Shown: piece by piece, positions 11,657 to 63,924 of the stretch
Numbering within the stretch: the first letter of the stretch is position 1
Layout: every line of letters begins with the position of its first letter
Notes under the pieces: generated by a model
Seen by the model: only the letters and a program-made list of their open reading frames with translations
What the model was told of the DNA's origin: nothing
Database searches by the model: none
Made by a program: the position numbers and the translations under genes
NCBI GenBank assembly: GCA_965202985.1
Contig: CBDBCF010000001.1
Location: 224,001-288,000, forward strand
DNA length: 64,000 nt
Direction of reading: 5' to 3'
Source: Longimicrobiales bacterium
GTDB lineage: Bacteria > Gemmatimonadota > Gemmatimonadetes > Longimicrobiales > Gaopeijiaceae

Positions 11657-11699
11657 GGCTCAATCTAGCCGGATCGACGGCCTCTCTCAACCCGCGCCA

Positions 11700-34788: not shown

Positions 34789-34791
34789 ACA

Positions 34792-41605: not shown

Positions 41606-41644
41606 CGCGGGACGGGGTGGACGGCGGGTCGTACCCCCGCGGAA

Positions 41645-41740: not shown

Positions 41741-41767
41741 AAGAATGGTTTGCCCCGTACCCACCCC

Positions 41768-44570: not shown

Positions 44571-44604
44571 GAGAGGAGGTCCATCTAAGGTCAGGCAGGC
44601 CGCT

Positions 44605-45240: not shown

Positions 45241-45501
45241 CAAGGCCTTCGAAAGGGTGACGGACGACTCCTTCCACACATTTCCACGCCGCCGAACTCG
45301 CCCCGGGCCGGGGCCACCACGGTTGCGGCCTTTGATGTGGGCCGTGTCGAGTTCAAGCCGACCTGCACAAACGCCCTGGCCGAGTTGCCGCGAGGACGCC
45401 CGATGAGCCACGTCGTGATCGACGACCGCCTGATCGAACAAATCTGCGGCCCAACGCCGCCAACTGCTCCCCGGGGAGCACAACCGCGAGGAGAATGAAG
45501 G

Positions 45502-46467
45502 ATGAAGCGTACCCGTGAACTCAGACCCCTCGCAGTCCGCCGCCGCCTCGAACGACAAATCAGACTTGCCAACAATGAAGAGGTTCCGTTGGATCAAACA
45601 TTAGAGGTGGCAGGACCAGTGGCTCTCGCTACCTTGGAGGCGCTTCATGTGACAAGGTATTGGCGGAACAGAACCATTCCCCGCCTGGCAGAAGGCAAGG
45701 GTCGTGTGGCAACTATCATTCAGGGTACAGCGATAGGCTCAAAAGGTTTTATTATGGAAAATCTCCCAACGATGACTCCCCTTGACACACCACTAGCAAC
45801 TGAGCCATTTGGTCCAGGCCTGACGCTCTGCTTGGATAGTCGCTCGCTCATCAGACCAAGGGTTGGCGAACGCACAACCCTAAAACGTTGGCGTAAAACC
45901 AAGGTATGCGACATCTTGTTCGTCTCTGAGGAGATGAATGCATATTCTCTAAAAATGTCAACCGATAATCGCGTGACGCTCACCATACAAAATTTGCAAC
46001 ATGCCATGAAGCTACCCGGATTGGTGACAATTGCAAGAGCCGTCACCTACGAAGACGTTCTAAGAGGGGTGCGCAATGCTCACGCCCACTTCATCCCAAC
46101 TAGAACATCAATCAAAAAAGCAACACCTTCAGAGATAGTCGGCTTCTTGGTCCAACACGGCCCCTGGCCAGTCCGAATCTGGATCAGCAACCTTGCATGG
46201 AGCTTAGGAGTGGCGATCGGCAATGGGATGGATATGCCGCAACTCAAGTTCAACAGTGGACGCCTGACACCCTGTGGAGGTGATGTTGAAAACGAGATAC
46301 CCGCTGGCCTGTATCTTGTTGGTGGTTGTTTAGAAAACATCGCCGTCACCGTCGCGTTGCCAGATGGTCGCGCTTTTGCTGGCCACTTGCCGACTTCCAA
46401 ACTAAGAACTGGCCGCTATTGCATCAACATCAATCAACCCGATGCAAATCCGGGAAGGCTGTCATAA
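45502..46467 (+). CDS. Hypothetical protein (low GC)
   Basis: 321-aa ORF with GGAG upstream; no family recognised. Confidence 0.6.
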   Translation: MKRTRELRPLAVRRRLERQIRLANNEEVPLDQTLEVAGPVALATLEALHVTRYWRNRTIPRLAEGKGRVATIIQGTAIGSKGFIMENLPTMTPLDTPLATEPFGPGLTLCLDSRSLIRPRVGERTTLKRWRKTKVCDILFVSEEMNAYSLKMSTDNRVTLTIQNLQHAMKLPGLVTIARAVTYEDVLRGVRNAHAHFIPTRTSIKKATPSEIVGFLVQHGPWPVRIWISNLAWSLGVAIGNGMDMPQLKFNSGRLTPCGGDVENEIPAGLYLVGGCLENIAVTVALPDGRAFAGHLPTSKLRTGRYCININQPDANPGRLS

Positions 46468-46477
46468 GTCGGCCCGA

Positions 46478-46570
46478 GGCGGCACCGTTGCTCAAGCGCA
46501 ACCCGGAGTTGCGAGCGGTGGCGGTGTTCAAGGAGTTGTGGAGGCTACATCTGGAGTGCGAACCTCGGGT
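46478..46570 (+). mobile_element. IS21-family istA fragment
   Basis: PLLKRNPELRAVAVFKELWRLH resembles the IstA N-terminal region. Confidence 0.5.
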
Positions 46571-47292
46571 GCCGACGCGCAGGCGAAACGCCTGGGACGC
46601 TCTGCTCGGCGCGGCACCCAACGCCCTGCCAGACCCGGACGCGCGCTGCGGCAACTGGCTACGCTTCGCCCGCACATGGGCGGGGTGCTCGCCCCATCCC
46701 CGGAACGCGAGACCGCCGATGCGACCGAGCCGAATCTTGCCGCACTCCGCGACCGCGTCGACGCCGCCTTCGCCGAGTGGCTGGGGCGTCGCTATGCGGG
46801 CTTGGCGAGCCTGCCGCCGCCCCCGCCGGTCATGTTGCACCATGTGCCGCACGTACTTGCGCACCATTTGGACCGGGCGGGGCCTGAGTGCCGCCCCCGC
46901 CGTCTACCAGAAGAATCTGGGCACGGGTTCGTTCGACCTGATCTCTCGTCCGCGAGTGCGGGCTGCCCGGCTGGTCGTGGCCGTGCTCCTCGACATGCTC
47001 CTGGCTCGCCTCCAACCACGGGCAATGTCGAAGCGACAGGTTGTGGCCGTCCAGCCGCCAGAGGAGTCGTCGGCCTTCGAGACAAGTGCGTCCACGTCTG
47101 CCCCAACGCGACGCTACGCCTGCGAGCGGCCGCCGAGTTTGCAGACACCCGTCCGTGGCCACCGTCGGGCCTGCCCCAGGACTACCTGCCCCTGCTGGCC
47201 CCCGAACGTTCCGCGTTCGTTCGCAAGGGGAAGCGCGTGGTCGCCCATGGCGGCGCTGCGTGGAGGAGGTCGTCGTGCCGCTGGTCGGCATC
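46570..47292 (+). pseudogene. Degraded duplicate of the pglZ 3' half
   Basis: Blocks of near identity to 62810-63906, e.g. gcgaccgagccgaa.cttgccgc.ctccgcgaccg and ttcgttcgcaaggggaagcgcgtggtcgccca, with several deletions. Confidence 0.9.
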
Positions 47293-47327
47293 CCCGTAGG
47301 CTTGACTTGGCCCAATAGCTGAACACG

Positions 47328-48878
47328 TTGCGGCAACCTCGAAAGTTCAGCGTCGGCGTGGAGGTGCAGGAGGAGCTGCACCGGCTGGGCGACTTGGACT
47401 TGCTGGTCTTCTACATCCCGGAGGTGTCCCGCTCGCAGAAGCCCGTCTATCTCAACAACGACATCCGTCGCGCGTTCGTGAGGAGCGGAGGCAGCGACGT
47501 TCGGTGCTCCGCCAGCGAGCGCAACCGCTTTCTTGTCGATGCCGCTTCCGAGCGCTACGACAGCCAGTTGGTGGAGATCGACCCGGCCAAGGCGTTCGAC
47601 GAAGAAAGCCTGCGCTGGTACCGAGCCGTCTACGAGGCGAGGCTGGGGAACCGATCCCACAAAGAAGCGTCCGACCTGGACTTCTTGGCCGAGATGGGGC
47701 TGCTCGTGGAACGGGGCGAACGCCGATTGCCGACGCGCGCGGTGGTGCTCCTCTTTGGAACGAACCCGGCGCTCCGGCAGCATCTGCCGCGTCCGGTGGT
47801 GGATTGTCAGCGCTACTCGACAGACCGCGCCGCCGCCTATACGGGCAAACGCTGGTTCGACCGCTTGGTGCTGGAAGACAACTTGGTGCGCACTTGGCGC
47901 ACGTTGATCGAGGAATGGTACGAGAAGTTCGCCGAGCATCCGTTCCGCTTGGACCCGCAGACCATGCAACGGGACGACACGCCGCCCGACTACCTGGCGT
48001 TCCGGGAGTCGATGGTCAACCTGATCGTCCACCAGGACTACGCCGACCCCTCCCGCAAGGCGCTGATCCGCCGCTACGCCGACCAGACCGTGTTCTGGAA
48101 CCCGGGCGACGCCTTCGCTCAGGACGCCGACCTGTTCGAGCCCGGCGAGAAGGAGGTCCGCAACCCCCGAATCGTGTTCGCGTTCCGTCACATCGGGCTT
48201 GGCGAGAACGCCGGTTGGGGCCTGCGCGACGTCTTCCGAAACTGGCAGCAGCTGGGCAACGTCCCGCCCCGCATCGACAACGACAAGCGCCGCAAGAGCT
48301 TCGAGATCGTCCTAGAGAAGGAGAAGCTGATGTCCGGGCCGCGGCAGGCGTTGCGGCAGGCGCTCGGGGCGACCTTGACGGAGCCGCAGGCTCGCGTGTT
48401 CGCCTTCGCGTCGCGGGAGGCCGAGGTCACGCTGTCCCAGATCGGGCTCGTGGCGGGGGTGTCGAGCGAAGAGGCCGTGCGGCTGGCGCGGCACTTGGTC
48501 ACGCAGGTGCTCTTTCGCCGGATAGGACAGGGCCGGTACACGCTGGCCCGGCATGTCCGAGACCGACCGCCCAGCGAAGCGGGGTTGGTCACTGACCAAG
48601 CTGCCGCGCCCAAAGGGGGGTTGGTCACTGCCGGAGTGACCAACTTGACGGAACATCAGAAAACGATTATGATTAACTGTGATGCGCCTCGTACCAGAGC
48701 GGAGCTGATGGAGCGCACCGGCTTGAACCACCGCGCGTTCTTCCGGCGCAAGCACCTGGACCCGCTGGTTCGCGCCGGCCTGATTCGCATGACCCGGCCC
48801 GAAGAACCCACACACCCCGACCAAGCCTACGTGGTGACCGAATCCGGCCTTGCCTTCTTGAGTGAATCGAAGAAGTGA
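47328..48878 (+). CDS. AlbA_2/Schlafen + HATPase (RecG C-terminal-like) + wHTH protein, N-terminally truncated
   Basis: KPVY....AFVRSGGSD, FRESMVNLIVHQDY, FWNPG, RNPRI, GENAGWGL, C-terminal L.PL...GLI.MT.P..P.HP.Q.Y. Confidence 0.75.
   Translation: MRQPRKFSVGVEVQEELHRLGDLDLLVFYIPEVSRSQKPVYLNNDIRRAFVRSGGSDVRCSASERNRFLVDAASERYDSQLVEIDPAKAFDEESLRWYRAVYEARLGNRSHKEASDLDFLAEMGLLVERGERRLPTRAVVLLFGTNPALRQHLPRPVVDCQRYSTDRAAAYTGKRWFDRLVLEDNLVRTWRTLIEEWYEKFAEHPFRLDPQTMQRDDTPPDYLAFRESMVNLIVHQDYADPSRKALIRRYADQTVFWNPGDAFAQDADLFEPGEKEVRNPRIVFAFRHIGLGENAGWGLRDVFRNWQQLGNVPPRIDNDKRRKSFEIVLEKEKLMSGPRQALRQALGATLTEPQARVFAFASREAEVTLSQIGLVAGVSSEEAVRLARHLVTQVLFRRIGQGRYTLARHVRDRPPSEAGLVTDQAAAPKGGLVTAGVTNLTEHQKTIMINCDAPRTRAELMERTGLNHRAFFRRKHLDPLVRAGLIRMTRPEEPTHPDQAYVVTESGLAFLSESKK
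48580..48673 (+). promoter_or_regulatory. Intragenic palindromes followed by a sigma70-like promoter TTGACG-N17-TATGAT
   Basis: TTGGTCA-C-TGACCAA and GTTGGTCACT-N5-AGTGACCAAC; -35 at 48645-48650, -10 at 48668-48673. Confidence 0.6.
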
Positions 48879-51661
48879 CCGACTCGCCGAGCAGGCTCTT
48901 CGAGCGGAAGGCGGCCCCGACGACGGCCCAAGTCGAGTGCCTGGGCATGCCCTTCGAGTCCGACAACGCCCGGCGCGAGCACTTCCTGCAGCGACTGCGC
49001 GAGAAGCTCCCCGAGCTGCGCAAGCGTCCTGACTTCCCAAGGGGGGAGGACGAGAACATCCTGCGCATGTCCGACCCGCCGTACTACACGGCCTGCCCGA
49101 ACCCGTTCCTGGCCGAGTTCGTCGAGCACTACGGGACGCCCTACGACCCCGCCGAGGAGTACCACCGCGAGCCGTTCGCCGTGGACGTGAGCGTGGGCAA
49201 GACCGACCCGCTCTACCGGGCGCACGGCTACCACACCAAGGTCCCCCACCTGGCGATCGTCCCGTCGATCCTGCACTACACCGAGCCCGGCGACATCGTG
49301 CTGGACGGCTTCTGCGGCTCGGGGATGACCGGTGTGGCCGCCCAGTGGTGCGGCGCGGCCCCGGAGGAGTACCGCCGCAAGCTCGAGAAGGAATGGAAGG
49401 ACCAAGGCCGGGAGCCGCCCAAGTGGGGCGCGCGGCGGGCCGTCTTGGGCGATCTGTCCCCCGCGGCCACCTTCATCACCGCCAACTACAACATCCCCTT
49501 CGACGTGGACGAGTTCGCCGAGGCGGCCAAACAGCTGCTGGAAGACGTCGAGAAGGAAGTCGGCTGGATGTACGAGACGCTTCACACCGACGGAAAGACC
49601 AATGGCCGGATCAACTACACGGTGTGGAGCGAGGTGTTCTCGTGTCCGGACTGCGGCGGGGAGGTGGTGTTCGGGCGGGAGGCCGTGGACGCCCGGACCA
49701 AGAAGGTGAAAAAGCAATTTCCGTGCCCGGAGTGCGGAGCGGTGCTGACGAAGATACGGCTCGTGCGAAGCTCTTCCGCCCGGTGGGATCGAGCCCTTGA
49801 ACGGAGCGTCGACGAACCCAAGCGAGTGCCGGTCCTGATCAACTATCAGATCGGCAACGACAGGCACGAAAAGGAGCCGGACAGTGCCGATCTTCAACTT
49901 CTCGAGCGAATCGCAGCTATGGAGCCCCTCCAAGGCGTGCCCTTGGACCACATGATGCACGTCTCCGACGGCGTGACGAAGTGGGGCGACAAGTGGCGGG
50001 CCGGGTCGGCCTCGTTTCAGCACGTGCACCACCTGTTCCTGCCTCGGGCCGCGCGAACTCTGGCTTGCCTGTGGGGCTTGGTTCGCCAGCAGGACGACCT
50101 GCGGTTACGCAACATGCTCATGTTCTTGGCCGAGCAGGCGATCCTCGGCATGTCCATCTTGAATCGGTACGGTCCAACCCACTACTCCCAGGTGAACCGT
50201 GCGATGTCCGGGGTGTACTACGTCAGCTCCCAGATCTCGGAATGCTCCCTCCGCTACAACCTAACGGGACGCACCGGCCGATTGCCCAAGGCGTTCACGC
50301 CCATGCCTTCGCGTCGTGGCCATGCTGTCGTGTCGGCCGTGGACTGCGGACGCATCCCAGTTCCAAGGGACTCCGTCGACTACATCTTCACCGACCCGCC
50401 CTTCGGCGACAGCTTGGCCTACGGCGAACTCAACTTCGTCGTCGAGGCGTTCCACGGCGTTTTCACGAACCAAGCCCCGGAAGCGATCGTCAGCCCGACG
50501 CAGCGCAAGCAGCTGGACGAATACCAAGTGCTCATGCGGCGCTGCTTCGGCGAATACGCCAGGGTCCTCAAGCCGGGGCGGTGGATGACCGTCGTGTTCC
50601 ACAACTCCCAGAACTCGGTTTGGAACGCCATTCAGGAGGGCCTGTCCGCCGCCGGCTTGGTCGTGGCCGACGTGCGCACGCTGGACAAGAAGGTCGGCTC
50701 CTACAACCAAGCCGTTGCCAGCGGCGCCGTGAAGCAGGACCTGGTCATATCGTGCTACAAGCCGTCCCGCGACCTGGAGGCGCGCTTCAAGCTGACGGCC
50801 GGAAGCGAGGACGGCGTCTGGGAGTTCGTCCACAATCACCTCAGAAACCTGCCGGTGTTCGTGGCCAAAGGGGACGTGGCGGAGATCGTCGCCGAGCGCC
50901 TCGACTACCTCCTCTTCGACCGAATGGTGGCGTTCCATGTCCAGCGAGGCGTGATCATCCCCCTCTCGGCCGCCGAGTTCTACGAAGGCCTGAAGCAGCG
51001 GTTCGCGGCCCGCAACGGCATGTACTTCCTCCCCGAGCAAGCCGTCGAGCACGACCGCAAGCGGCTCACGGTCCGGCGCATCGAGCAGCTGGCCCTCCTC
51101 GTGACCGACGAGAAGTCCGCCATCGAGTGGCTGCGCCTCCAACTGAAGGCCCGTCCCCGGAGCTTCCAGGCGATCCACCCCGATTTCGTCCGCGAGCTCG
51201 GCGGCTGGCAGAGGCACGAGCAGCTTCTGGAGCTGTCCACCCTCCTGGAGCAGAACTTCCTCTGCTACGACGGCGAGGGCGAGGTCCCCTGCCAGATTCA
51301 CGGCTACCTGTCCAGCAACTACAAGGACACCCGGAACCTGCCCAAGGACGACTCCACCCTGCGGAAGCGCGCCCGCGACCGCTGGTACGTGCCGGACGTC
51401 AACAAGGCCACCGACCTGGAGCGCCTCCGGGAGCGCACGCTCCTCCGGGAGTTCCAGACCTACCGGGAACCGTCGCGACGGCGCCTGACGAAGTTCCGTC
51501 TGGAGGCCGTCCGCGCCGGCTTCCGTCGCGCCTGGGGGAAGGGCGACTACGACACGATCCTCGATATCGCCCGGAAGGTCCCCGACAAGGTGCTGCGGGA
51601 GGACCTCCAGCTGCTGATGTGGTACGACCAGGCGAAGAGGCGGAAAGAGGCGGAAGGGTGA
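48875..51661 (+). CDS. pglXI: BREX-3 DNA methyltransferase PglXI copy B (intact, 928 aa)
   Basis: Motif I DGFCGSGMTG, zinc ribbon, FTDPPF, WYVPD, EAVRAGF; BREX-3 context. Confidence 0.92.
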   Translation: MTDSPSRLFERKAAPTTAQVECLGMPFESDNARREHFLQRLREKLPELRKRPDFPRGEDENILRMSDPPYYTACPNPFLAEFVEHYGTPYDPAEEYHREPFAVDVSVGKTDPLYRAHGYHTKVPHLAIVPSILHYTEPGDIVLDGFCGSGMTGVAAQWCGAAPEEYRRKLEKEWKDQGREPPKWGARRAVLGDLSPAATFITANYNIPFDVDEFAEAAKQLLEDVEKEVGWMYETLHTDGKTNGRINYTVWSEVFSCPDCGGEVVFGREAVDARTKKVKKQFPCPECGAVLTKIRLVRSSSARWDRALERSVDEPKRVPVLINYQIGNDRHEKEPDSADLQLLERIAAMEPLQGVPLDHMMHVSDGVTKWGDKWRAGSASFQHVHHLFLPRAARTLACLWGLVRQQDDLRLRNMLMFLAEQAILGMSILNRYGPTHYSQVNRAMSGVYYVSSQISECSLRYNLTGRTGRLPKAFTPMPSRRGHAVVSAVDCGRIPVPRDSVDYIFTDPPFGDSLAYGELNFVVEAFHGVFTNQAPEAIVSPTQRKQLDEYQVLMRRCFGEYARVLKPGRWMTVVFHNSQNSVWNAIQEGLSAAGLVVADVRTLDKKVGSYNQAVASGAVKQDLVISCYKPSRDLEARFKLTAGSEDGVWEFVHNHLRNLPVFVAKGDVAEIVAERLDYLLFDRMVAFHVQRGVIIPLSAAEFYEGLKQRFAARNGMYFLPEQAVEHDRKRLTVRRIEQLALLVTDEKSAIEWLRLQLKARPRSFQAIHPDFVRELGGWQRHEQLLELSTLLEQNFLCYDGEGEVPCQIHGYLSSNYKDTRNLPKDDSTLRKRARDRWYVPDVNKATDLERLRERTLLREFQTYREPSRRRLTKFRLEAVRAGFRRAWGKGDYDTILDIARKVPDKVLREDLQLLMWYDQAKRRKEAEG

Positions 51662-52902: not shown

Positions 52903-54924
52903 CTATTCCTTGTCTACATCCCTACTGACGCCATCCAGAATCCGCTCCCACGAGCCAAATTCCCGAACAAAGTACGGCCGCTTAGCGTCTGGATCCACCA
53001 GTACCCCAAACCAGCATGTCGCATTGTGTTCAGACATTCGTCTTCGGACTGCTTCGATCAGCATCAGATGTGTCGCCGCCCCATTGTACCCACTGCACAC
53101 CGTAAGACCCACTCCTAGCACCTCGGCCACGTAACTACCGCGTTGTGGCTGCAGACTCACCACCGCCCTGCGGGCCATGGCGTCTATCTTTTGGTTAACA
53201 TGATCGCATGCGTCCGGCGGAAGTGCGAGCAAGAACATCCCAAGGTCGATTCCCGCCTTACTAGGATTGATCTCCAAGTCCGCGATTATGCCGCCCAATA
53301 CGGAGTTGACGAACGGAGTTAACGCTCCCCTCGGCACTCTATCACCAGGAAGCCCCAATCTTCGCACGTACATGGCTGCGTCCACAGTCGCCGAGAAATT
53401 CTGCTCAATATAAATAATAGAGAGATTATCGTCGACCCAAAGATTGTGCGACAGATGATAGCCCAGGGTAGTCAATTCGTGATCGGATAAGATCTTGGAC
53501 CGGAAAATCAGCCTGCGGTCAATATAGCTCAAGAAACGTAGTGGAGAATCCAACAATTCCGTGACAGAATCCAGGCAAAACACGTCACACACAAAGGGGG
53601 GCTTGAGGATATCATCTGTATACATTTTCTCCAAGAGATAATCGGTTTGATGGCCGAGAGCCGGATAATCCTCCGACGTAATGCAGAACAAATATATCTT
53701 CGGATCGGCAAGTGGTATTCGTATCTTGCTTGCAAGTCGATCCTCATACAAGTAATCATCGTCTATGATCATACGGGCGGTCTGCAGACATTGATTGTAG
53801 GCAGCTTGAATACCCTTCTTGAAATCAGAAATAATCGCCGCGGCATCTCCCTTTCTTGCATCGTAGGTTAGTCGTTTCGATTTTACTTGACCAATTATGA
53901 CTCGATTGCCAAAAACTACCAGTACGTCGACTTCTCCGTGGGTGTAGCCAGCACTATCCTTCAGTTGAACATTCCGGAATACATGTTGCTCACCGAAGAC
54001 ATGTTTTAGTCGGCGATATACAATCTGTTCGGCGACTTCTCCTCTGTGTCGCGAAGCAGTTTGCTCGTAGGGTGTGTTGATCATCCAATAGTATGGACTG
54101 ACGTAGAGAGATTCCATCAAGTTGATGTAATCGAACAGAACAAAGGACTTGCCGTCTTGACGAATGATGGGGCGGGCCTTCGCCATGTTGAAGTCACCAG
54201 GCGATCTGTAGTCGGTGTTACGTTCATCTGTCGTACTGCAAAACGACTGTAGTATAGCGAGAATCGCACTGTCGTCAATATCGACTGCAGCTACGAGGTC
54301 GTCAAACGAGAACGTTAGTGCCTGACAGAAAACAGAAGGAGTACTGGCGGCCGCATCGGCCTGGGACAATGCGGAGACGATGTTCGTTACCGCTTCATCC
54401 TGATGACAGCAAATAGCTTGCGCAACGATAATAGCATCCTCAATGGAAAATCCCTTGTGTGTTCTGAGCCATTGTTCATCCTCTCGGTATCGCTCAGCCG
54501 CAAAATCACTATATTGGAATGGTTGAGCCGACTCTGCACTGTAGAAGATCGGTTCGCGCATACGCTGGCCAATAGGCTGTTGATGCAGAATAGAAGGCGA
54601 AAGCGACTTGTGAAGCATCTGTAACAGCTCGTGAGTACGAGCAATGTAGTGTGCCATCGCCTCCATAGTCGGTTCCGTATAGTCAATGGGGTGCTTCAGT
54701 AGCAGCCCTGCCAACATGGTCTGCTCCCAGCGATTTAGTCGATCTGGCCTGTGATAAGTCATCCATTGCTTTGCCGACACACCGGAGGTCACGTTCACGT
54801 AATTATTCGTAACAGCAATACTGCACAATGCATAGATGTATCCAGGAGATCCACAGAGGTTAGTGAGAGCTTCGAAAATACTCTCTGTAGACTGTGATTC
54901 AGAATGGGAACACGTGGCGCTCAT
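52903..54924 (-). CDS. Hypothetical protein with NERD-like PD-(D/E)XK nuclease domain
   Basis: RGEVAE, GEVDVLVVFGNRVIIGQVKSK, AYNQ. Much lower GC than the host genes. Confidence 0.7.
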   Translation of the reverse strand: MSATCSHSESQSTESIFEALTNLCGSPGYIYALCSIAVTNNYVNVTSGVSAKQWMTYHRPDRLNRWEQTMLAGLLLKHPIDYTEPTMEAMAHYIARTHELLQMLHKSLSPSILHQQPIGQRMREPIFYSAESAQPFQYSDFAAERYREDEQWLRTHKGFSIEDAIIVAQAICCHQDEAVTNIVSALSQADAAASTPSVFCQALTFSFDDLVAAVDIDDSAILAILQSFCSTTDERNTDYRSPGDFNMAKARPIIRQDGKSFVLFDYINLMESLYVSPYYWMINTPYEQTASRHRGEVAEQIVYRRLKHVFGEQHVFRNVQLKDSAGYTHGEVDVLVVFGNRVIIGQVKSKRLTYDARKGDAAAIISDFKKGIQAAYNQCLQTARMIIDDDYLYEDRLASKIRIPLADPKIYLFCITSEDYPALGHQTDYLLEKMYTDDILKPPFVCDVFCLDSVTELLDSPLRFLSYIDRRLIFRSKILSDHELTTLGYHLSHNLWVDDNLSIIYIEQNFSATVDAAMYVRRLGLPGDRVPRGALTPFVNSVLGGIIADLEINPSKAGIDLGMFLLALPPDACDHVNQKIDAMARRAVVSLQPQRGSYVAEVLGVGLTVCSGYNGAATHLMLIEAVRRRMSEHNATCWFGVLVDPDAKRPYFVREFGSWERILDGVSRDVDKE

Positions 54925-55400
54925 CTGGCTTGTTGCTCCTTGGGTTCGTGATTAGGATGGCGGACCGCAACGAGGCCAGTGGATTCAGGGGTTCCAATCA
55001 GAACGAGTGAATCGCCAGCCGTGGGCGGAAACGTAAGATAGTGGACTTATTGTTGTGGCAAAAGATAGTCGGTTGCTTCTGTGGTCTCGGCATCGAAATT
55101 GAAGTTAGCATGCCGTCAAGGCGGCGGCCAAGTCCTAGAGGCCTCCGTTTCTGTGGGGCCGACCAGTGATCGGGAGGCCGCCGCCGGTCTTGGGGAGCCT
55201 CGGCGCTCGGACAACCGTCGGGCCGTTCCGTTTCCCGCGGCGACCGGGGACGGGCTGACAGACGTGGGCATGAACCCGCTATGCCGTACGCATTGCGCTC
55301 GAACTCGGCCGGCGCGTGCGCGACAGAACTTAGCGGGACACGGGCGTTTACCGGGGTCTCGACGGCGCGAACGCACGGAATTCGCGGAATTGGGCTTGAA

Positions 55401-57182
55401 GCGGCCTTATTCATGACTCGTGTGAAGTTGTCGTTGGGGCGAGATTGCGGACGTGCACAAGGCGAGCAGGGCAAAACGAGCGCGCGAGCGGGCCGAATTG
55501 GCGATTTCAGACGGTGGAGACGAGGCGCGCAAGGGGATTTTGGGCGTTCGGAGCGCGTTGCTGCGCGCGCTGGACACACTGGTGCGTCGGAGCGGCCGTC
55601 GAGGCCGGAACGGCGACGGGCGCAGGTGCGGCGCTAGCCGCCCGGGTCCGGCAGCAGGGCGAGCTGTCGGGTGGCCAGCGTCCAGTGGCCCGCCGAGCGG
55701 CCGACGATCGTGACGACGCGGCGTCCGGAGACGGTGAACCGGGCGGGCGCTCGCAGCACGCGTTCGAGCAGGCGACGCAAGCTCCACCCGGTCTGGGTGG
55801 CGCGTTCCAGCAGCGTGCGCAGCACGTGCATGGTCTGGTAGCCGAACAGCGCGACGAGCAGACGCACCTCGTTGCAGGCGAAGGCGTCGACGCTCGGGCC
55901 GCGCTGGCCGACCGGTCGGCCCCGGTACCAGCGCTTGGGCCGCGGCGACGACGACAGCGCCGGGTCCACCACGCTCTTCAACTCGCCCATGTGGCCCTCC
56001 GCCTTGCCGCGCTTCCGGTAGAGCGCCAGCAGCGCGTCGGCGGGCATCGCGTCCGCCGACATCGACGTGATCAGCCAGAACACCTCCGGGAACAGCTCGC
56101 CGGGCCGCTCCTTGACCACGCACACCACGCGCCTGGACCGCGACCACGAAGCCGCCCGGCAGCCCTGCTCCGGCTCCCACCACCACATCCGCGCATCGTC
56201 GCCCGCCTCCCGCAAGTCGTACCACGTCTCCTGCACCGCTTCGTCCACCGCCCGCTCGGCCAACCGGTCGAGCACAGCGTTCCGACGGAGCCTGGCCACG
56301 AACGGCGTGCCCCGGTCCTCGAGCGCCCGCATCAGCTGCTCGGCCGGGTACCCCGCGTCCATCCGCACCACCGCCCTGCGGCAGCAGTGCCGCTCGACGC
56401 GGTCGAGCACCGCCAGCACGAACTCCGTCCCGCCCGCAGCCGTGTGCGCCTTGCCCGCCCGCAGCCGAGCGTCCAGCAAGTCGCCCGTCTCCGCCGACGA
56501 CGCCACCAGCGGATGGTACACCGTCGCCTTGCAGTAGCCGTTCCAGCCGCTGCCCGGCCGCTTGCCGTGAACCTCGATCGGCAGGCTGTCCACGTCCACC
56601 ACCATCTCCGCCAGCCGACGCCCGCCGTTGCGCGCCCGCAGCCGCCAGCCCGCCAGCCGCGCCAGCCCCTCCCGCAGCACCTCCGGGTTGTCCCCCCGCG
56701 ACAGCATCGCCACCAGCCGCGACAGCGTCGGCTGCGACGCCAGCACACGCCCCGCCGCCAACGGCGTCGTGCCCGCCCGCCCGCTCGCAGCCAGCCGGAA
56801 CGCCGGATCGTCCCGCAACATCGTCGCGTCGGCGTGGTCCCGACGACACTGAGCCGCCAGCAGGCACGCCGTCCGCACCAGCTCCGCCAGCGAATGCCGT
56901 GTCCTGCGCGGGTCCCGAGCGTCGTCGATCCGCTCGCTCAGCCAGCGGTCCACGCCGCTGGCGCTCAACACCTCGCGACACAAGAGAACGCCCGCGTCGC
57001 CCGTCACCTTGTCGGGCCGAACCTCGACCCGCACCGACTTGTTGTACCGAAACGGAGCACCCATTATCTTCACCTTGGCGTTGCGTGCGGCAGGCCGCCG
57101 GTTCTCGGCCCGTGAACCTTGAACCTAATGGCCTGCCGCCGCGCGCCACACCCTTACGCCTGAACCTCGTGAATAAGGCGGG
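55401..57182 (-). mobile_element. IS1380-family element, apparently complete
   Basis: Imperfect 14-bp IRs (gcggccttattcat / gtgaataaggcggg) flanked by a TTGAA duplication at 55396-55400 and 57183-57187. Confidence 0.85.
55634..57073 (-). CDS. IS1380-family DDE transposase
   Basis: TGDAG, LR.DP, LASQPTLSRL, DVDS, YHPL, RMDAGY, Y..RG.AE..ELK, NE.RL. Confidence 0.92.
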   Translation of the reverse strand: MKIMGAPFRYNKSVRVEVRPDKVTGDAGVLLCREVLSASGVDRWLSERIDDARDPRRTRHSLAELVRTACLLAAQCRRDHADATMLRDDPAFRLAASGRAGTTPLAAGRVLASQPTLSRLVAMLSRGDNPEVLREGLARLAGWRLRARNGGRRLAEMVVDVDSLPIEVHGKRPGSGWNGYCKATVYHPLVASSAETGDLLDARLRAGKAHTAAGGTEFVLAVLDRVERHCCRRAVVRMDAGYPAEQLMRALEDRGTPFVARLRRNAVLDRLAERAVDEAVQETWYDLREAGDDARMWWWEPEQGCRAASWSRSRRVVCVVKERPGELFPEVFWLITSMSADAMPADALLALYRKRGKAEGHMGELKSVVDPALSSSPRPKRWYRGRPVGQRGPSVDAFACNEVRLLVALFGYQTMHVLRTLLERATQTGWSLRRLLERVLRAPARFTVSGRRVVTIVGRSAGHWTLATRQLALLPDPGG

Positions 57183-57187
57183 TTGAA

Positions 57188-57920
57188 GCGGCCCCAAGAG
57201 GCGCTCGAGCGGCCTGGGAGCGGCCTGCAGGCCCCGAGGCGTGCCGACGCCGAAGCGTCTTCGCATGAGCAGCCCGAGGTTGAAGGCGGCGACGTGAATC
57301 AGCATCCGCTTGCGGACGTCCTCGTGGCCGCGCACGTGCACGCGGCGAAGCCCGCCCGTCCCCAGCAGGTGCGCGAACGAGCGCTCCAGCTTCTCGCCCC
57401 ACATCCACAGCAGCGCCTTGCCGCGCTCGCCCCGAATCCGCCGCCGGTTCGCATAGACCGGCTTCTGGGCTTCTTTGCTCTGCTTCCAACTCCGCCGACC
57501 GCGCGCGGGCTCGCTCACGTAGCCGTGCAGCCTCCGGTCCTCCAACTCCGTCATCGTCCTGTTCGAGTGATAGCCCTTGTCGCACACCATTCCGCCGCCC
57601 CAGCCCCCAGCTCCGCGAGCCGCCGCTCCGCCTCGTCCAGCGTCTTCGTCACCGACGCCGCATCGCCCCCGTCCGTCGTCTGCACCGTCACGCCCACCAC
57701 GGCGCCCGACTCCAGGTCCACCACCTGCTCCAGCTTGTGACCCAGCCGCGTGCGCCCGTCCTTCATCTTCGTGATCCGCGCCTCCGGATCCCCAGGATGC
57801 ACCCACTCCGCGTTCGACCCCTTCTTCGGACGCTTCCGGTCCAGCTTCGCCAACTCCGCGCGCGTCGGCGTCTCGATCCCCGACGACCGCGCCAACTCCC
57901 GCAGCCACGCCTCGTAGCCC
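57188..57920 (-). mobile_element. IS1182-like transposase, 5'-truncated and frameshifted
   Basis: DPEARITKMKDGRT, VDLESG, DKGYHS, ERSFAH...TGGLRR, AFNLGLLMR. Confidence 0.75.
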
Positions 57921-58094: not shown

Positions 58095-58781
58095 GTGAGT
58101 ATCGATCCTGGTAGCGACACCGCGGGTCCAGCGGCCCACACCGGAGAGGACGCGAAGCTGAAGATCGTGTCGATAAGGGTCAACGGGGCACAGATTCAGG
58201 TATACGAACGCGTTACGGTCCGAGAGATTGTCGAGAAGGCAAGCGAGGCTGGCGCGATTTCAGGAGTTATCGAGGAATACGTTATCGAAAGGGTCGAGAC
58301 AGTGGGCGAGCACGGCCTTGAGGAAGAAATCGAAGTTCAGGAACTAGAAGAATTCATGGCGATCCCGTTCGGCAAGACCGAGGTCGCGACAGTGTCGAAC
58401 GTTCACGAGAGAATACGGGAAGAGCTTAGGGCCCTGGGATATCCGTCCCGTGTCGTGACAGGCGATACCTCAGGCGGACCACAGACGGTCGTAGTATTCG
58501 AATATCCAGTGCTTACCGGTCGTTTCAAGGGCACTACGTGCATGATGGGAATATCCACCCAATGCGAGGCCGTGGGGTATCCGGAGATTCCCCCGCATTG
58601 GATTTTCATTAGCCCGCCTATTACCGATACACGAGATGGAACCAACCATGGACTCAACAGGTTTGACGGGATGGATTGGGTAGCCCTGAGTCGGCCGCCG
58701 GGCGCATTTTGGGACAAGCTTGGCTCGAAGAACATGAAAGGGTACATGGAACATGTGGCCCGCGTGTGGAAGAACATATGA
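58095..58781 (+). CDS. Ubiquitin-like (beta-grasp) domain fused to an E2-like domain
   Basis: N-half IRVNG...VTVREIVE.A...YVIE...EEIEV....F.AIP.G. C-half GYP.IPPHW and W..LSRP. Strong RBS GGGAGGAG. Confidence 0.7.
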   Translation: MSIDPGSDTAGPAAHTGEDAKLKIVSIRVNGAQIQVYERVTVREIVEKASEAGAISGVIEEYVIERVETVGEHGLEEEIEVQELEEFMAIPFGKTEVATVSNVHERIREELRALGYPSRVVTGDTSGGPQTVVVFEYPVLTGRFKGTTCMMGISTQCEAVGYPEIPPHWIFISPPITDTRDGTNHGLNRFDGMDWVALSRPPGAFWDKLGSKNMKGYMEHVARVWKNI

Positions 58782-60247
58782 TCCAAGGGGCTTGGCACGA
58801 AGTCGTGCTTCCCGGCGATACGAATCGACGAGCCTGCGATCATCTCTTGCAACATTACCGACAAGGTGATTTCCAGGAAGACTTATGTTTTGGCTCTTGG
58901 ACGCCCAGCCGCGGAATGGACAGAGAGACGGCAATCGTAACCGACATTATCCTTCCGAAGCGCGGCGAGCGAACTCTTCATTCAACGGGCAACGTTAGCT
59001 TCGTGGGTCCCTATCTTGCTCGAGCGACGCGAGAAGCCGTCCGCAAGACGCACGGATTGGTCTTCATGCACAGCCATCCCACCAACGGGTGGCAAGAGAT
59101 GAGCGCAGCGGACGAGCGGGCGGAACGAGGTCGGATCGCAGACGTTGCAAGGACGACAGGCCAGCCACTCGTCGGCATGACCGTCGGAAGAGACGGCCAC
59201 TGGAGCGCTCGAGTGTGGAAGGGCGACGCCGGAAGGCGGAGTTCGTTGACGTGCAGGAAGGTGCGAATCGTAGAGGAAAGTCGGCTCGTCGTGTGGCAGC
59301 GGCCGCTCCGTGGCCGGGGAAGACGATCCCGACAGTACCGGACCGTCCAAAGCTGGGGAGAAGACAAGCAGGGGTGGATCGAGAGCGTTCGGATCGGCGT
59401 CGTAGGGCTCGGGAGCGTAGGAAGCGTAGTCGTGGAAGGCCTGGCACGGATTGGGGTTCGCGACTTGGTGCTCATCGATCACGACTTGGTAGAGGAGAAC
59501 AACTTGGATCGCCTGCTTAATGCCGGCACCAGGGAAATCGGCAAGCCAAAGACAGTCGTGGCGGCCAGAGCCGCACGAAGGGCAAGTTCCGCTCGGTCGA
59601 TTTCGGTGGCAACCGTTCAGAATTCGCTCCAGAGTCGAGAAGCGTACAGCTTGGCTAGAGACTGCGACATCTTGGTAAGCTGCGTGGATGGTCCGGTAGG
59701 GCGCGACCTCTTGAACAGAATCGCATTTCGGGACGGCATCCCTGTAATAGACGGGGGAGTGGAGGTTCGAACGGACATCAGGACCAACAACATGAACGCA
59801 GCACGATGGAAGGCTCATTTGGTGAACCCTTACCAGCAGTGCCTGCGGTGCAAGGAACAGTATACCTCGAGCGATGTAATGATGGAACTGGACGGGTCTC
59901 GGGGTGACCCTTCCTACATTCGCACGCCCGACGGCCGGACCGGCGGAGAGAACGTGTTCAACTTGAGCCTGGCTGTCGGAAGCGAGCTTCTGAACATCGT
60001 GGTTCGCATGCTAGTGGCTGACGGTTGGTGGCCTCAACAACGTGGACTCGAACGGAATCTGGTGACCGGACGCATAAAGACGCAGGACGGACAGTGCTGG
60101 GAGGGCTGTACGATACGTCGAGAAAGTTGGATGGGCGACATGGCGGAGGCCATACCTTATATTGACGCCGGACGACTGAGGCGAACACTCGGCGACGCAC
60201 TTCGGCGTCGTTGGAGGAACACATTCAAGAGATGGAGGATAGGCTGA
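58778..60247 (+). CDS. JAB peptidase-ThiF/E1 adenylyltransferase fusion
   Basis: QEDLCF, FMHSHP and S..D (JAB). VVGLGSVGS, IDHD.VEENNLDR, CVD...R, IDGG, CLRC (ThiF). Confidence 0.88.
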   Translation: MIQGAWHEVVLPGDTNRRACDHLLQHYRQGDFQEDLCFGSWTPSRGMDRETAIVTDIILPKRGERTLHSTGNVSFVGPYLARATREAVRKTHGLVFMHSHPTNGWQEMSAADERAERGRIADVARTTGQPLVGMTVGRDGHWSARVWKGDAGRRSSLTCRKVRIVEESRLVVWQRPLRGRGRRSRQYRTVQSWGEDKQGWIESVRIGVVGLGSVGSVVVEGLARIGVRDLVLIDHDLVEENNLDRLLNAGTREIGKPKTVVAARAARRASSARSISVATVQNSLQSREAYSLARDCDILVSCVDGPVGRDLLNRIAFRDGIPVIDGGVEVRTDIRTNNMNAARWKAHLVNPYQQCLRCKEQYTSSDVMMELDGSRGDPSYIRTPDGRTGGENVFNLSLAVGSELLNIVVRMLVADGWWPQQRGLERNLVTGRIKTQDGQCWEGCTIRRESWMGDMAEAIPYIDAGRLRRTLGDALRRRWRNTFKRWRIG

Positions 60248-61248
60248 TGGAGCAAGAGAACACACAGAATAGTCTGCACACTTTGATCAAGTACGTTGAA
60301 GGTATTCCCGATCGTATCCAGAAGCGACTGACTACGGGAAACGGTATGGATGAGGACAAGATGCGTTCATGGATCGCCGAAGAACTGCAAAAACAGGTTC
60401 GCAGAGTTAGATTCTACAACGACAAGCGGAACCATGAGACGGAAAGCTGTTTCGCGCATTATACGTCGTGGAGTAGTTTTCTTGCGATACTGAACCAAGA
60501 ACGACCACTGATGCGGATGTACAACTACGAGACGGCCAACGATCCGCAGGAGGGTCAGATATACCCCGAGGGATGGAGGGAAGTCGGGGAGAGGGCAAGA
60601 TGCATAGGAGACGTCAACGGTGCTGATGACCGTTCGCAACCGGGTGACACTTACGGATGTTCGTTTTCTAGCGGCACCGAGGACATAGGTGACGACCTGA
60701 CTCTCTGGCGGCTTTACGGCGACAACGGAGAGGGCTGTTCTTTGATGACGAGTTCGCCCGGAATGGATATGTACCGGATTCGCTATAGAAAACACGACGG
60801 GAGTGTAAGAAACCGCAAAGAAGCTGAGGAAGACAAGGCAGTGGCTCAGCAGATGAACAAACTGCTTTGCGCAGGAGAGCGAACCATTGACAGCCTTGAT
60901 GACAGCTATATGCAACCCGTAGGATCAGCTATTGGGGACGCCGTCCAGAGAGTATTAGAAGGCTATTGCTACTTGGTCAAGGATGTAGCCTATTCGAACG
61001 AAAAGGAGTGGCGCCGGATCGTTGTCAGGCCGCCTCTTGTGGAAACCCGCTTTGACGCTGATGTGGCAGGAGTGAGACGATATGTCGAAGGGCATGCATT
61101 CAAGGACTTATTGGTGACAGGATCGGCAATCACAATTGGGCCAAAGGTGGGCAATTCCAAGGCAGTTTGCGACTATGTGAAGAGGACGGCGGGCCACAGA
61201 GGTCTTCAACGGCCTAGCATTAGAAATTCGGCCAAGTCCTATCGGTAG
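60247..61248 (+). CDS. DUF2971 domain protein
   Basis: HYTS, NDPQEG, CSFS...DDL.LWRLYG..G.G, K..AY..EKEWR. Confidence 0.8.
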   Translation: MEQENTQNSLHTLIKYVEGIPDRIQKRLTTGNGMDEDKMRSWIAEELQKQVRRVRFYNDKRNHETESCFAHYTSWSSFLAILNQERPLMRMYNYETANDPQEGQIYPEGWREVGERARCIGDVNGADDRSQPGDTYGCSFSSGTEDIGDDLTLWRLYGDNGEGCSLMTSSPGMDMYRIRYRKHDGSVRNRKEAEEDKAVAQQMNKLLCAGERTIDSLDDSYMQPVGSAIGDAVQRVLEGYCYLVKDVAYSNEKEWRRIVVRPPLVETRFDADVAGVRRYVEGHAFKDLLVTGSAITIGPKVGNSKAVCDYVKRTAGHRGLQRPSIRNSAKSYR

Positions 61249-61260
61249 TTTGGACTGGGA

Positions 61261-61908
61261 ATGACGAGCCCAGACATCGTTTTGGCGGCTATGGTGCCCG
61301 CTCCCCGCGATGTATGGATCGACCCGGTCCGAATTCAGAAGCTGCTGTTCTTGATCGACAAGGAGGTTCCGAGCCTAGTCGGCGGCCCACACTTCAACTT
61401 CCAGCCCTACAGCTACGGTCCGGTCGACCTTGATGTCTACCTTGAACTGGAGGCACTGACGACAGATTACTGCGTACACACCGACCGGACCTTGCGTCAT
61501 CTCCGATTCCGGCTCACCAGCAAGGGGATTGGTCGGGGCGAAGCTCTATTGGCGAGCCTTCCCGACAAGGCATCCCGCTTCGTCGAACGAGCCTGTAAGT
61601 GGGTTTTGGAAGCTTCGTACCACGACTTGCTTTCCGCTATCTATCAGCGGTATCCCGAGATGGCGGTCAACGCAGTGGCAGTTCAGCTGATTCCCAGATC
61701 CACACGCCGCAAGAAGCAATCGGCGATTACAGCGGTCCTGACAGGACTGGCCAGAAGCATTGATTTCATGGGACTGCTTGACGAGCGTCCTGCTGGTATC
61801 GACAGCAACGTCTCCGACCGGGAGGCGATAGGGGACGCTTGGCAACGGACGGGCAACCACCTCAGAGCGGCCATTGGCGAGGTGGACGGCGCACGAGGTC
61901 GGAAGTAG
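61261..61908 (+). CDS. Panacea/SocA (DUF4065)/YwgA-like protein with C-terminal extension
   Basis: RIQKLLFLID, F.PY.YGP...VY..L..L, LL..IY..YP. Confidence 0.6.
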   Translation: MTSPDIVLAAMVPAPRDVWIDPVRIQKLLFLIDKEVPSLVGGPHFNFQPYSYGPVDLDVYLELEALTTDYCVHTDRTLRHLRFRLTSKGIGRGEALLASLPDKASRFVERACKWVLEASYHDLLSAIYQRYPEMAVNAVAVQLIPRSTRRKKQSAITAVLTGLARSIDFMGLLDERPAGIDSNVSDREAIGDAWQRTGNHLRAAIGEVDGARGRK

Positions 61909-61910
61909 AC

Positions 61911-63924
61911 TTGGGTCCGCATCGTGAGCAGTGGCGCGACCGCATCCTCCATGAGTTCCTGCCTGGAGCCTCCCGGCTGACCGTCGTATCCGACCCCGAC
62001 GGCTTGGTGCTGGACGAGACCGTGCTGGCCGAGCTTCGGCGACGGGGCTTCGAGGTGCTGGTCTTCGACGAGCCCGTGGCGTTTCGATACGCCTACGAAT
62101 CGAGATGCCGGCGCTACTGGGACGACGGCAAGCCGGTCGAGGCCGTCGTCGTGGCGAGGATGGACGCTCTTGATACCGCCAATCTGCCCTACGACGTAGT
62201 CCAAGCAGGGAGACCGCTGACGTTCGGGCTCGGCGCGCTGTTCCCCGGTCTGAGCCGGACGGTCTTGGCGACGCTCGGCCCTACGCAGCTCGATGCCCTC
62301 TGCGACGCCGTGGAAGGCAAGCCGCCGGGCGTTCTGGGCGACAACGCGACCAAGGACTTCGTTCTCCGCCATGTCGTCGGGATCGCCCCCGAACTCGTGC
62401 GGGAACCTCCGAGCCTGCTTCGCGCCCTGCTCCGCATCCATCACGGCGGCCAGTCGATTCCGTCACTGCTGGGAGAGCGCTTGGTCCGGGTTCTCTGCCA
62501 GGAGGGCCGCTTCGAGGACTGGCCACTGGAGCAGATCGTGACCGGACGCGAACGCCTTCTTCGCGTTCCTTCAAGAGCGCTGGCCTCGCTTCCTTGGCCG
62601 TGCCGCCGGATCCCAGACGACGTCGGAAGAGCGCGACCACGACTTCGCCTACGCAGGGCCGGCGGACCTGCCCTTCGACCACAGCGACGTTCACGTCTAC
62701 ATCGACAACCTCTTCCGGGAAGGGTTTCTGCGACCGGTCGATCACGCGGCCGCCGACGCCTTCGCCGACAGTTGGATTGCGTCCGGAGTGCGGACTTCGG
62801 GCGACGACGCCGACGCGCAGCGCCTGGAACGCCTGCTCGACGCGGCGGCCGGCGCCCTGCCTGACCCGGACGCGCGCTACGGTGACTGGCTGCGCTTCGC
62901 CCGGACATGGGCGGAAGCAGGGGCGCTCGCCCTGTCCCCGGAACGCGAGGCCGCCGACGCGACCGAGCCGAACCTTGCCGCGCTCCGCGACCGTGTCGAC
63001 GCGGCCTTCGCCGAGTGGCTGGGGCGTTGCTATGCGGGCTTGGCCAACCTGCCGCCTTCCCCGCCGGTCATGTTGCACCATGTGCCGCGCGTGCTTGCGC
63101 GCCACCTGGACGACGCGCCGGAGCACAAGGCCGCCCTGCTGGTCGTGGACGGCCTGTCAATGGACCAATGGGTCGTGGTGCGCGAAGAACTGGCCCGTCG
63201 TCGGCCCGCCTACCGCTTTCGGGAAGGGGCCGTCTTCGCCTGGACTCCCACGATCACGTCCGTGTCGCGCCAAGCTGCGTTCGCGGGGAAGCCGCCCTTC
63301 TACTTCCCGCCGGGCAGCATCGACTCCACGGACCGGGAGCCGGCGCTGTGGCGTCAGTACTGGACCGGGCGCGGCTTGGCCGCCGACGACGCCGTCTACC
63401 AGAAGAACCTGGGCGCTGGTTCGCTGGAGGCCGTCGCCGACCTGATCTCTCGTCCGCGAGTCCGGGCTGCCGGGCTGGTCGTGGACACCGTGGACAAGAT
63501 CATGCACGGCATGGAGCTCGGCGCCCGAGGAATGCACGGCCAAGTCCGTCAGTGGGCGCGGGAGCCCTACTTGGCCGCGCTCCTCGACCTGCTCCTGGAC
63601 AACGGATTCCGAGTCTGGCTCGCCTCCGACCACGGCAACGTCGAAGCGACGGGCTGCGGCCGCCCAGCCGCCGGAGGAGTCGCCGACCTGCGGGGCAAGC
63701 GCATCCACGTCTACCCCAGCGCGACGCTGCGCAGGCGGGCCGCCGTCGAGTTCCCGGACGCCCGGCCGTGGCCGCCGGCGGGCCTGCCCCAAGACTACCT
63801 GCCCCTGCTGGCTCCCGGACGCTCCGCGTTCGTTCGCAAGGGGAAGCGCGTGGTCGCCCACGGAGGCGCTTCGTTGGAGGAGGTCGTCGTGCCGCTGGTC
63901 GGCATCGAGCGGGCGGAGCTGTGA
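61911..63924 (+). pseudogene. pglZ: BREX-3 phosphatase PglZ, +1 frameshift near 62541
   Basis: WRD.IL.EF, DPDGL, FRYAYE, LPYD. After the shift: AFFAFLQERW, LLVVDGLS.DQW, PTITSVSRQA, SDHGN, HGGASLEEVVVP. Confidence 0.9.

Follow-up and report, generated by a model that had tools for sequence, protein, structure and literature searches.

A predicted alanine-ended, Bub-like conjugation module and its co-inherited DUF2971 partner in a Longimicrobiales genome

Why should genes for ubiquitin-like conjugation stand inside a phage-exclusion locus, and what might they do there? The question is raised by four tightly spaced genes, ORF1 to ORF4 (open reading frames), that run directly into pglZ of a type 3 BREX (bacteriophage exclusion) locus in a Longimicrobiales bacterium (assembly GCA_965202985.1, contig CBDBCF010000001.1, positions 224,001 to 288,000; this 64,000-nucleotide stretch is referred to as the window). 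Taking the evidence together, ORF1 to ORF3 are tentatively understood as a three-gene, BubE-less relative of the Type I Bub systems, in which conjugation of an alanine-ended ubiquitin-like (Ubl) protein would activate a co-inherited DUF2971 protein as the output. The parts of this proposal stand more firmly than the whole: from sequence comparison, an active Ala-ended conjugation machine of the Bub type appears very likely, and a functional tie between it and the DUF2971 protein is probable.

The sequence of ORF1 gives little away, with no Pfam match at E 0.1, no PADLOC or NCBIfam match, and nothing found in the PDB either with its own sequence or with its E2 profile. Its AlphaFold2 model (predicted local distance difference test score, pLDDT, 84) is more telling: residues 23-94 resemble ubiquitin folds (Z about 9.5; root-mean-square deviation, rmsd, 1.6-2.6), and residues 102-228 find Citrobacter BubB (9eav_D) as the best of 48,161 chains (Z 9.6, rmsd 3.7, 115 aligned). 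The original prediction, which had placed a Ubl and an E2 in this single ORF, is borne out by the structure search, as are its calls for the next two genes: the JAB-ThiF fusion ORF2 matches Pfam ThiF and has Citrobacter BubCD as its best PDB sequence match (E 9e-21 alone, 3e-32 as a profile), and ORF3 passes the DUF2971 (PF11185) cut-off of 22 bits with 22.9, a relative (L003) reaching 31 bits. Its impression of an architecture not described before does not survive, because a Ubl-E2 fusion with a JAB-E1 fusion is the layout published for Type I Bub, which comprises BubAB (Ubl-E2 fusion), BubCD (JAB-E1 fusion) and BubE (DUF6527) (Ye et al., bioRxiv 10.1101/2024.11.21.623953). The fused state of ORF1 was likewise discarded as a novelty, fused and split Ubl-E2 both being listed in the Bub table.

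What sets the module apart is the end of its Ubl, together with a changed E2 active site and the lack of BubE, three features that the original prediction had not noted. In Bub, the JAB domain cleaves after a conserved Gly, and a Tyr of the E1 hands on the Ubl as an oxyester to a Ser of the E2 that has His and Asp at its sides (bioRxiv 10.1101/2024.11.21.623953); the characterised beta-grasp modifiers covered by the papers cited here all end in Gly (PMC10557695, PMC1779556, bioRxiv 10.1101/2024.11.21.623966). The fusion junction in the window reads TEVA/TVSNVH, and there is no Gly where Ubl and E2 meet. One scan of representative genomes gave 46 related loci, hosted according to record titles by Gamma- and Alphaproteobacteria, Chloroflexota, Acidobacteria, Actinobacteria, Bdellovibrionales, Gemmatimonadota and Latescibacterota. 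The gene order is Ubl, E2, JAB-E1 in all 46, with JAB-E1 truncated in three and frameshifted in two. The last core residue of the Ubl, assigned by pattern in 44 loci and read separately in L046 and the frameshifted L045, is Ala in 42, Ser in 3, Met in 1 and Gly in none, within the motif T-x-V-Ala or a near variant. Directly behind it comes a stop codon (34/46), a short non-conserved tail (11/46) or, once, the fused E2. Ala98 is the predicted mature C-terminus of the window Ubl because most relatives have their stop codon at this point; an end at one fixed position, with non-conserved tails or a fusion beyond it in 12 of 46 loci, is the pattern of a processed reactive terminus. Fusion is rare not only among the loci but also among homologues, nine of 66 being fused and 57 E2-only. 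The E2-only proteins start at the position of an internal GTG (Val100) of ORF1, and the GAGGT found 7 nucleotides (nt) before this codon may allow separate synthesis of the E2.

The same Ubl end pattern recurs in ten metagenome loci (about five distinct), and a profile search extends the family to 134 representatives at 50% clustering, the fused members of which have the junction P-[TA]-[PT]-V-[SA]. In a 401-genome phylum sample, 18 genomes match this wider family; among 16 of its modules (15 genomes) the free Ubl end is Ser in eight, Ala in three and Val in one, the other four being taken up below. The same trio of genes is found on a Mycobacterium avium plasmid (NZ_CP076857.1, L127:5765-7928), where two are annotated as hypothetical proteins and one as a ThiF enzyme, and the Ala that terminates the Ubl stands in register with the canonical Gly; the plasmid search returned one weak record with profile P0155 and none with P0071. 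The representative, metagenome, phylum and plasmid sets share a few genomes and are not independent. Across the analysis, the 19-residue match L060, the partial E2 matches L067 and L095, and L075, which had a coordinate slip, were left uncounted. Ala termini have precedent in conjugation, namely in CBASS (cyclic oligonucleotide-based antiphage signalling system) cyclases (PMC10449767). As a side observation, one genome contains two wider-family modules with 5 kb between them, and a DarT-DarG pair in convergent orientation comes after the second (L136:4681-17365).

The enzymes are conserved at their putative active sites. In the E2, His168 and Ser199-Arg are invariant in 28 proteins. In an alignment that includes two canonical BubB proteins, the Asp column is occupied by His168 and the His column by Pro201; the His two residues after Ser and the invariant Asp of Type I Bub are absent from the ORF1 E2 (Ser-Arg-Pro, His168). 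Since hhalign of the E2 profile against the BubB of the same genome was not significant, the kinship rests on the fold, on a weak match to Pfam Prok-E2_E (7/28 members, best E 0.0018) and on the motif alignment. Cys157 was rejected as the catalytic residue, as it is near-invariant in close homologues and lost in the wider set, being not conserved among the 28. In ORF2, the JAB residues E34/H98/H100/D112 and, in the E1, the GxGxxG motif, R245 and Tyr380 are invariant in 23 aligned proteins; the E1 crossover loop is without Cys in these 23, and a CxxC zinc motif is present.

A further departure concerns BubE. According to the Bub preprint, all Bub operons contain bubE, and its table is headed as DUF6527-containing operons (bioRxiv 10.1101/2024.11.21.623953); since the catalogue was drawn from such operons only, a BubE-less family such as this one could not appear in it. 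BubE was never found beside the module, be it in the window or in two sets of 43 and 20 module-bearing genomes, and is encoded elsewhere in 9/43 and 7/20 of them. The genome under study offers an internal control, a canonical Bub operon 2.6 Mb away (L049:6386-9345, i.e., G000:C1:2886386-2889345) with BubA and BubB as separate genes, a Gly-ended BubA, a BubB of the Asp...Ser-Arg-His type whose Asp lines up with His168, BubCD and BubE. Canonical BubCD/BubE genes also occur about 4 kb from an Ala-ended module within one genome (L010:3860-5672 and 10001-13173). Searches of the open literature returned no description of a Bub family that ends in Ala or Ser and lacks BubE, nor of such a family next to DUF2971.

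What would such conjugation serve? When all ORFs within 10 kb were clustered, DUF2971 emerged as the only conserved neighbour (36/46 loci), the next clusters being a methyltransferase group in 10 loci and others in ≤5. No more than about 300 nt separate the gene from the JAB-E1 stop; 17 loci have it on the same strand (one of these behind a second copy that is broken), and 19 have it in convergent orientation. Tree distances of JAB-E1 and DUF2971 correlate with rho 0.92 (n=34; 0.88 and 0.79 inside the two main clades) in a comparison of 34 of 47 loci, those with both genes intact and L021 excluded, for which relatedness inflates the test; the agreement between the trees extends over hosts from several phyla and over changes of orientation. 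In the reverse direction, 5 of the 201 family genomes sampled carry the DUF2971 subfamily, in all five next to the module, and none of the 193 that lack an E2 match has it. The 43 module-bearing genomes hold 37 hits, 36 at module loci and one beside a Ubl remnant, and the nine module genomes without adjacent DUF2971 have no copy of the subfamily anywhere. At L102:6399-8207 an intact DUF2971 gene stands beside a lone Ubl remnant, E2 and JAB-E1 being gone. On this distribution, the DUF2971 subfamily appears to need the module and the module not to need DUF2971.

Regarding the activity of ORF3, the motifs H71-Y-T, N98-D-P and E252-x-E254-x-R256 are invariant in 29 proteins, and a bioinformatic survey classes DUF2971 as a DarT-like ADP-ribosyltransferase family (PMC12522546). 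Aristaios, a DUF2971 protein of lactococci, has been tested as an abortive-infection system and affects transcription of the phage (PMC11381338, PMC13064643). The DUF2971 profile found no match among PDB sequences. The C-terminus of DUF2971 was discarded as an E1 substrate, for it ends near a conserved Tyr-Arg and not in Gly or Ala. In a few loci (L043/L044:12931-14199, minus strand; L007; L028) an FRG-domain plus TPR gene adjoins DUF2971.

In the mechanism proposed, the JAB domain would cut ORF1 after Ala98, and E2 may also come from the internal GTG. By analogy with BubCD and BubB, the E1 would adenylate the terminal Ala and hand the Ubl as an oxyester from Tyr380 to Ser199 of the E2, wherein His168 would replace the BubB His/Asp pair and ligation to a target would follow. 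The weakest step comes next: upon infection or DNA damage, conjugation would switch on DUF2971, via Ubl attached to DUF2971 itself or to a protein that it reads. So activated, DUF2971 would consume NAD+, ADP-ribosylate nucleic acid or protein and abort the infection. ORF4 and BREX-3 would take no part. Activation is preferred over neutralisation because intact DUF2971 persists beside broken enzymes, of which some frameshifts are perhaps assembly errors.

Several observations weigh against this proposal, in whole or in part. Three loci have a Gly immediately after the Ubl Ala, and the four remaining wider-family modules, which are related (L129-L132), continue from V-Ser into a four-residue tail ending in Gly, to be seen either as a processed tail or as a return to the Gly terminus. 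The register of Tyr380 depends on the method, hhalign and MAFFT picking different Tyr residues of canonical BubCD (that of MAFFT 8 residues earlier). Kinship and partial redundancy among the loci make the counts and the Mantel test look more independent than they are. On the output side, DUF2971 genes that are convergent in 19/36 loci cannot be co-transcribed with the module. Modules without DUF2971 are common (7 intact among the 46 loci, and 15/16 wider-family modules), which implies that conjugation has a role without it; the ten loci lacking DUF2971 comprise these seven, five of them in one clade, and three with a broken JAB-E1. The ORF3 model (pLDDT 91) resembles Tpt1 (Z 6.7), DarT (Z 6.2, rmsd 3.5, 140 aligned) and other ADP-ribosyltransferases at levels below the tool's trust threshold, as is also the case for Foldseek, where DarT is the top match at E 0.17. 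Aristaios protects alone, as a single gene (PMC11381338, PMC13064643). Lastly, a 2026 paper (PMC13373217) states that protection against phage has yet to be demonstrated for Bub operons, and neither a target nor a phenotype is known for Bub systems.

The DUF2971-less loci have a neighbourhood of their own. A helix-turn-helix (HTH) and/or IrrE-type gene lies upstream in L020, L026 and L041, all among the seven intact ones, and in L021; more widely, an upstream HTH/IrrE (Peptidase_M78) gene with no adjacent DUF2971 occurs at L020, L021, L026, L041, L128, L131, L132, L135-L137, L141 and L142, and such a gene is seldom seen with DUF2971.

Convergent orientation, frequent absence of DUF2971 from the module and the single-gene action of Aristaios all suit the view that two independent defence elements travel together in a shared mobile block, an Ala-ended Bub machine and a self-sufficient Aristaios-like ADP-ribosyltransferase with no biochemical link between them. 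Intact DUF2971 beside broken modules (L023, L028, L102) can be added to its credit. Yet no other flanking gene is kept, the congruence of the trees holds across phyla and changes of orientation, and the subfamily is, among the sampled family genomes, confined to those that have an E2 match; co-travel is thus regarded as unlikely, if the most durable of the alternatives.

Should DUF2971 instead be a constitutive toxin, Ubl conjugation could keep it inactive, or ORF4 could do so in this lineage, until a phage disturbs the machine and sets it free. The DarT-like fold of ORF3 invites this idea, as do the loss of DUF2971 where the module is truncated (L008, L011, L017 and the sister genome G055) and the PADLOC match of ORF4 to the non-macro part of a DarG profile at E 0.015. 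It conflicts with the intact DUF2971 genes beside frameshifted or deleted enzymes (L023, L028, L102), and ORF4 was kept in G055 after DUF2971 had been lost. A 17-sequence ORF4 profile found homologues at none of 56 other module loci. We hold a toxin-antitoxin arrangement to be improbable, and of the coupling of a conjugation pair to toxin and antitoxin contained in the original prediction, the DUF2971 half is upheld by its adjacency in 36/46 loci and the ORF4 half is not.

A bolder alternative assigns the two activities to a single path: DUF2971 would ADP-ribosylate a protein or nucleic acid of the phage, and the ADP-ribose would then receive the Ubl from the E2~Ubl oxyester, giving an ester-linked, DELTEX-like product. 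Strict dependence of the DUF2971 subfamily on the module, the all-oxyester chemistry of Bub, the altered E2 active site, loss of the isopeptidase BubE and a eukaryotic precedent would fit. The same E2 motif, though, is found in many modules without an ADP-ribosyltransferase, and canonical Bub forms lysine links (bioRxiv 10.1101/2024.11.21.623953), making this pathway rather far-fetched at present. Equally speculative is the fuller version, a third Bub class acting in phage defence, with a beta-grasp modifier conjugated via terminal Ala/Ser and, in this clade, an E2 that discharges Ubl onto ADP-ribose written by DUF2971.

One may also doubt conjugation itself and take the Ala/Ser-ended Ubl as a non-covalent adaptor, or as one that is only adenylated, with the enzymes serving another reaction. 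The characterised beta-grasp modifiers of the papers cited are Gly-ended, BilA is no longer adenylated when one further Ala is put at its end (PMC10557695), and some prokaryotic beta-grasp families have no conserved terminal residue (PMC1779556). However, the blocking Ala of BilA sits one residue past the Gly and does not replace it, the free end of the Ubl is at a fixed position in 34/46 loci with tails or a fusion beyond it in 12, and the catalytic Tyr and Ser are invariant; a Ubl that is not conjugated is accordingly judged very improbable.

As to the setting of the Ala-ended module, the genes downstream of ORF3 are instructive. ORF4 had been called Panacea/SocA-like; a weak Atlas lead (0.86, 21% SocA_Panacea members) speaks for the label, and Pfam, including PF13274 (SocA_Panacea), gives no match, a paralogue reaching only E 0.19. 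In PADLOC, ORF4 matches PDC-M19A at 1.7e-8. Of 200 other family genomes, 16 encode an ORF4 homologue, and in 12 of 16 loci inspected a DUF2335-type motif gene comes after it (two confirmed by Pfam). The homologue and the DUF2335 membrane-protein gene form a recurring two-gene module (L070-L088; L089:11822-12941), often after restriction-modification-like genes. At the same BREX-3 site, G055 has a decayed Ubl-E2, no JAB-E1 or DUF2971, ORF4 with the DUF2335 gene, and an intact pglZ. It is exactly the DUF2335 stretch that is deleted in the window, and ORF4 abuts pglZ for this reason. ORF4 is, on these comparisons, a passenger from a separate two-gene module that has lost its DUF2335 partner here.

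The BREX genes tell a similar story. The genes brxF, brxC, pglXI, pglZ and brxA stand in order around the ORF1-ORF4 block, the last being presumably brxA by its position, not by a family match. In BREX-3 gene order, the brxHII helicase comes between pglXI and pglZ; no SNF2-family helicase match was found within the BREX locus of this genome (G000) or of G055. PglZ, BrxC, BrxA and BrxF are encoded at none of 77 other module loci, where PglXI gives weak generic methyltransferase matches in three; the co-expression of the cassette with core BREX genes that had been suggested finds no echo there. The Pfam neighbour scan covered 55 hand-picked proteins, 38 of them from 153 listed candidates. The BREX-3 setting and ORF4 are incidental as judged from gene content, and the pglXI-pglZ interval is an insertion hot spot. 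A four-gene BREX-3 accessory cassette of conjugation pair, toxin and Panacea-like antitoxin, for which the tight spacing into pglZ and the occupation of the same site in G055 might be cited, is hardly credible given the zero counts for BREX core genes and ORF4 elsewhere, the deletion behind the run-in to pglZ, the decayed module next to an intact pglZ in G055, and a window BREX with no SNF2 helicase and a frameshifted pglZ.

The feature coordinates are collected in Table 1. The four tightly spaced genes with two overlaps and a 12-nt gap were described correctly at the outset: ORF1 and ORF2 overlap by 4 nt (ATGA), ORF2 and ORF3 by 1 nt (TGATG), 12 nt separate ORF3 from ORF4, and pglZ homology begins directly at the ORF4 end. 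A public-run contig (run X4, record 17) bridges the Ubl/E2 junction without mismatches, and contigs X1 record 5 and X5 record 28 bridge ORF4/pglZ, showing that neither junction is an assembly error; for the ORF1 fusion, fused homologues also rule this out. Contigs without the apparent extra pglZ base near 62541 differ at many other places. The block has 52-59% GC compared to 72% for pglZ and lies 6.4 kb downstream of pglXI, behind an opposite-strand gene and insertion sequence (IS) elements. A promoter/terminator scan of the locus gave signals no stronger than shuffled sequence, and no RNA run is among the listed public runs that carry window DNA. These runs are labelled sponge metagenome, and several relatives' titles name sponge-symbiont taxa.

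Table 1. Coordinates of features in the window
Feature	Position	Strand	Basis or remark
ORF1, Ubl-E2 polyprotein (BubAB-like), 228 amino acids (aa)	58095..58781	+	
Beta-grasp Ubl domain, end ...T-E-V-Ala98, predicted mature C-terminus	58158..58388	+	ubiquitin folds and stop position of relatives
GAGGT, 7 nt, in-frame GTG (Val100), possible internal E2 start	58380..58394	+	sequence
BubB-like E2, His168 (PPH) and Ser199-Arg-Pro, without conserved Cys	58392..58781	+	
ORF2, JAB peptidase-E1 fusion (BubCD-like), 489 aa	58778..60247	+	
ORF3, DUF2971, predicted ADP-ribosyltransferase fold, 333 aa	60247..61248	+	
ORF4, weakly Panacea/DarG-like protein, 215 aa	61261..61908	+	
BREX-3 pglZ (context)	61906..63924	+	two single-base indels relative to the intact G055 copy
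Upstream BREX-3 genes (context): brxF, brxC, frameshifted pglXI, pglZ fragment, second intact pglXI	37347..51661	+	
NERD-domain gene, IS1380-type transposase and further IS remnant, between pglXI and module	52903..57908	-	

The surroundings hold further features. Between window positions 41750 and 51661, the two pglXI copies, 93% alike, enclose the pglZ fragment, an IS remnant, a 321-aa ORF and a gene with an ATP-binding/Fic-like C-terminal part; more pglZ/brxA fragments follow brxA in L001, and the BREX locus looks repeatedly rearranged. Directly upstream of brxF (34087-37101), an NYN-domain gene and a NACHT ATPase gene (769 aa) are a possible defence pair. The NERD-domain gene (52903-54924, minus strand; 673 aa), between pglXI and the IS elements, is of low GC.

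The importance of the module lies in the C-terminal Gly being treated as defining the chemistry of ubiquitin-fold modifiers. A widespread Ala/Ser-ended family with intact E1, E2 and JAB would widen the Gly rule and show in what way E1 and JAB sites accept a side chain. As ORF1 escapes Pfam, PADLOC and NCBIfam profiles, surveys of defence systems probably count too few members of the family. A clade in tight linkage with a predicted ADP-ribosyltransferase, itself related to the phage-blocking Aristaios, would offer a direct handle, with three genes, defined catalytic mutants and a read-out. Discharge onto ADP-ribose, if true, would be a bacterial counterpart of the eukaryotic attachment of ubiquitin to ADP-ribose through an ester.

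Among the known systems, Aristaios shares with ORF3 the DUF2971 domain, and DarT the predicted ADP-ribosyltransferase fold; Aristaios is a single-gene system and DarT has the antitoxin DarG, and neither is described, in the accounts cited, as tied to a Ubl machine. Type II CBASS (Cap2/Cap3) likewise tolerates conjugation through a C-terminal Ala, and there conjugation promotes a downstream enzyme; what it conjugates, however, is a cyclase and not a beta-grasp Ubl, by means of an E2-E1 fusion with Cys. In the module only the E1 stretch matches E1-E2 profiles, and no cyclase/CD-NTase is among the conserved neighbours. Type I/II Bil (BilABCD) also joins Ubl, E2, JAB and E1, its JAB trimming a C-terminal extension (PMC10557695), but works through Cys thioesters, is encoded by four separate genes, and has a large E1 of the IAD-AAD-CYS type and a Gly that is universally conserved; a separate BilC, the BilD CYS domain, a Cys E2 and a Gly-ended BilA are all lacking from the module. 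BREX type 3 is alike in the core genes that surround the block and unlike in having its helicase and an unbroken pglZ. The closest relative is Type I Bub, with which the module has in common a JAB-E1 fusion behind the Ubl-E2 gene or genes, a Cys-free E2 with an invariant Ser, the crossover-loop Tyr of E1, the lack of an E3 and, in DUF2971-less relatives, HTH and IrrE-type regulators upstream. It differs in the Ala (or Ser) in place of the Gly of Bub, in the Ser-Arg-Pro E2 with His at the Asp position, in an E1 retaining the CxxC zinc motif that is missing from canonical BubCD, and in having no BubE, whose place is taken in this clade by a DUF2971 gene. ORF1 to ORF3 would thus work like Type I Bub while departing from three of its defining features, namely the Gly end, the E2 His/Asp pair and bubE.

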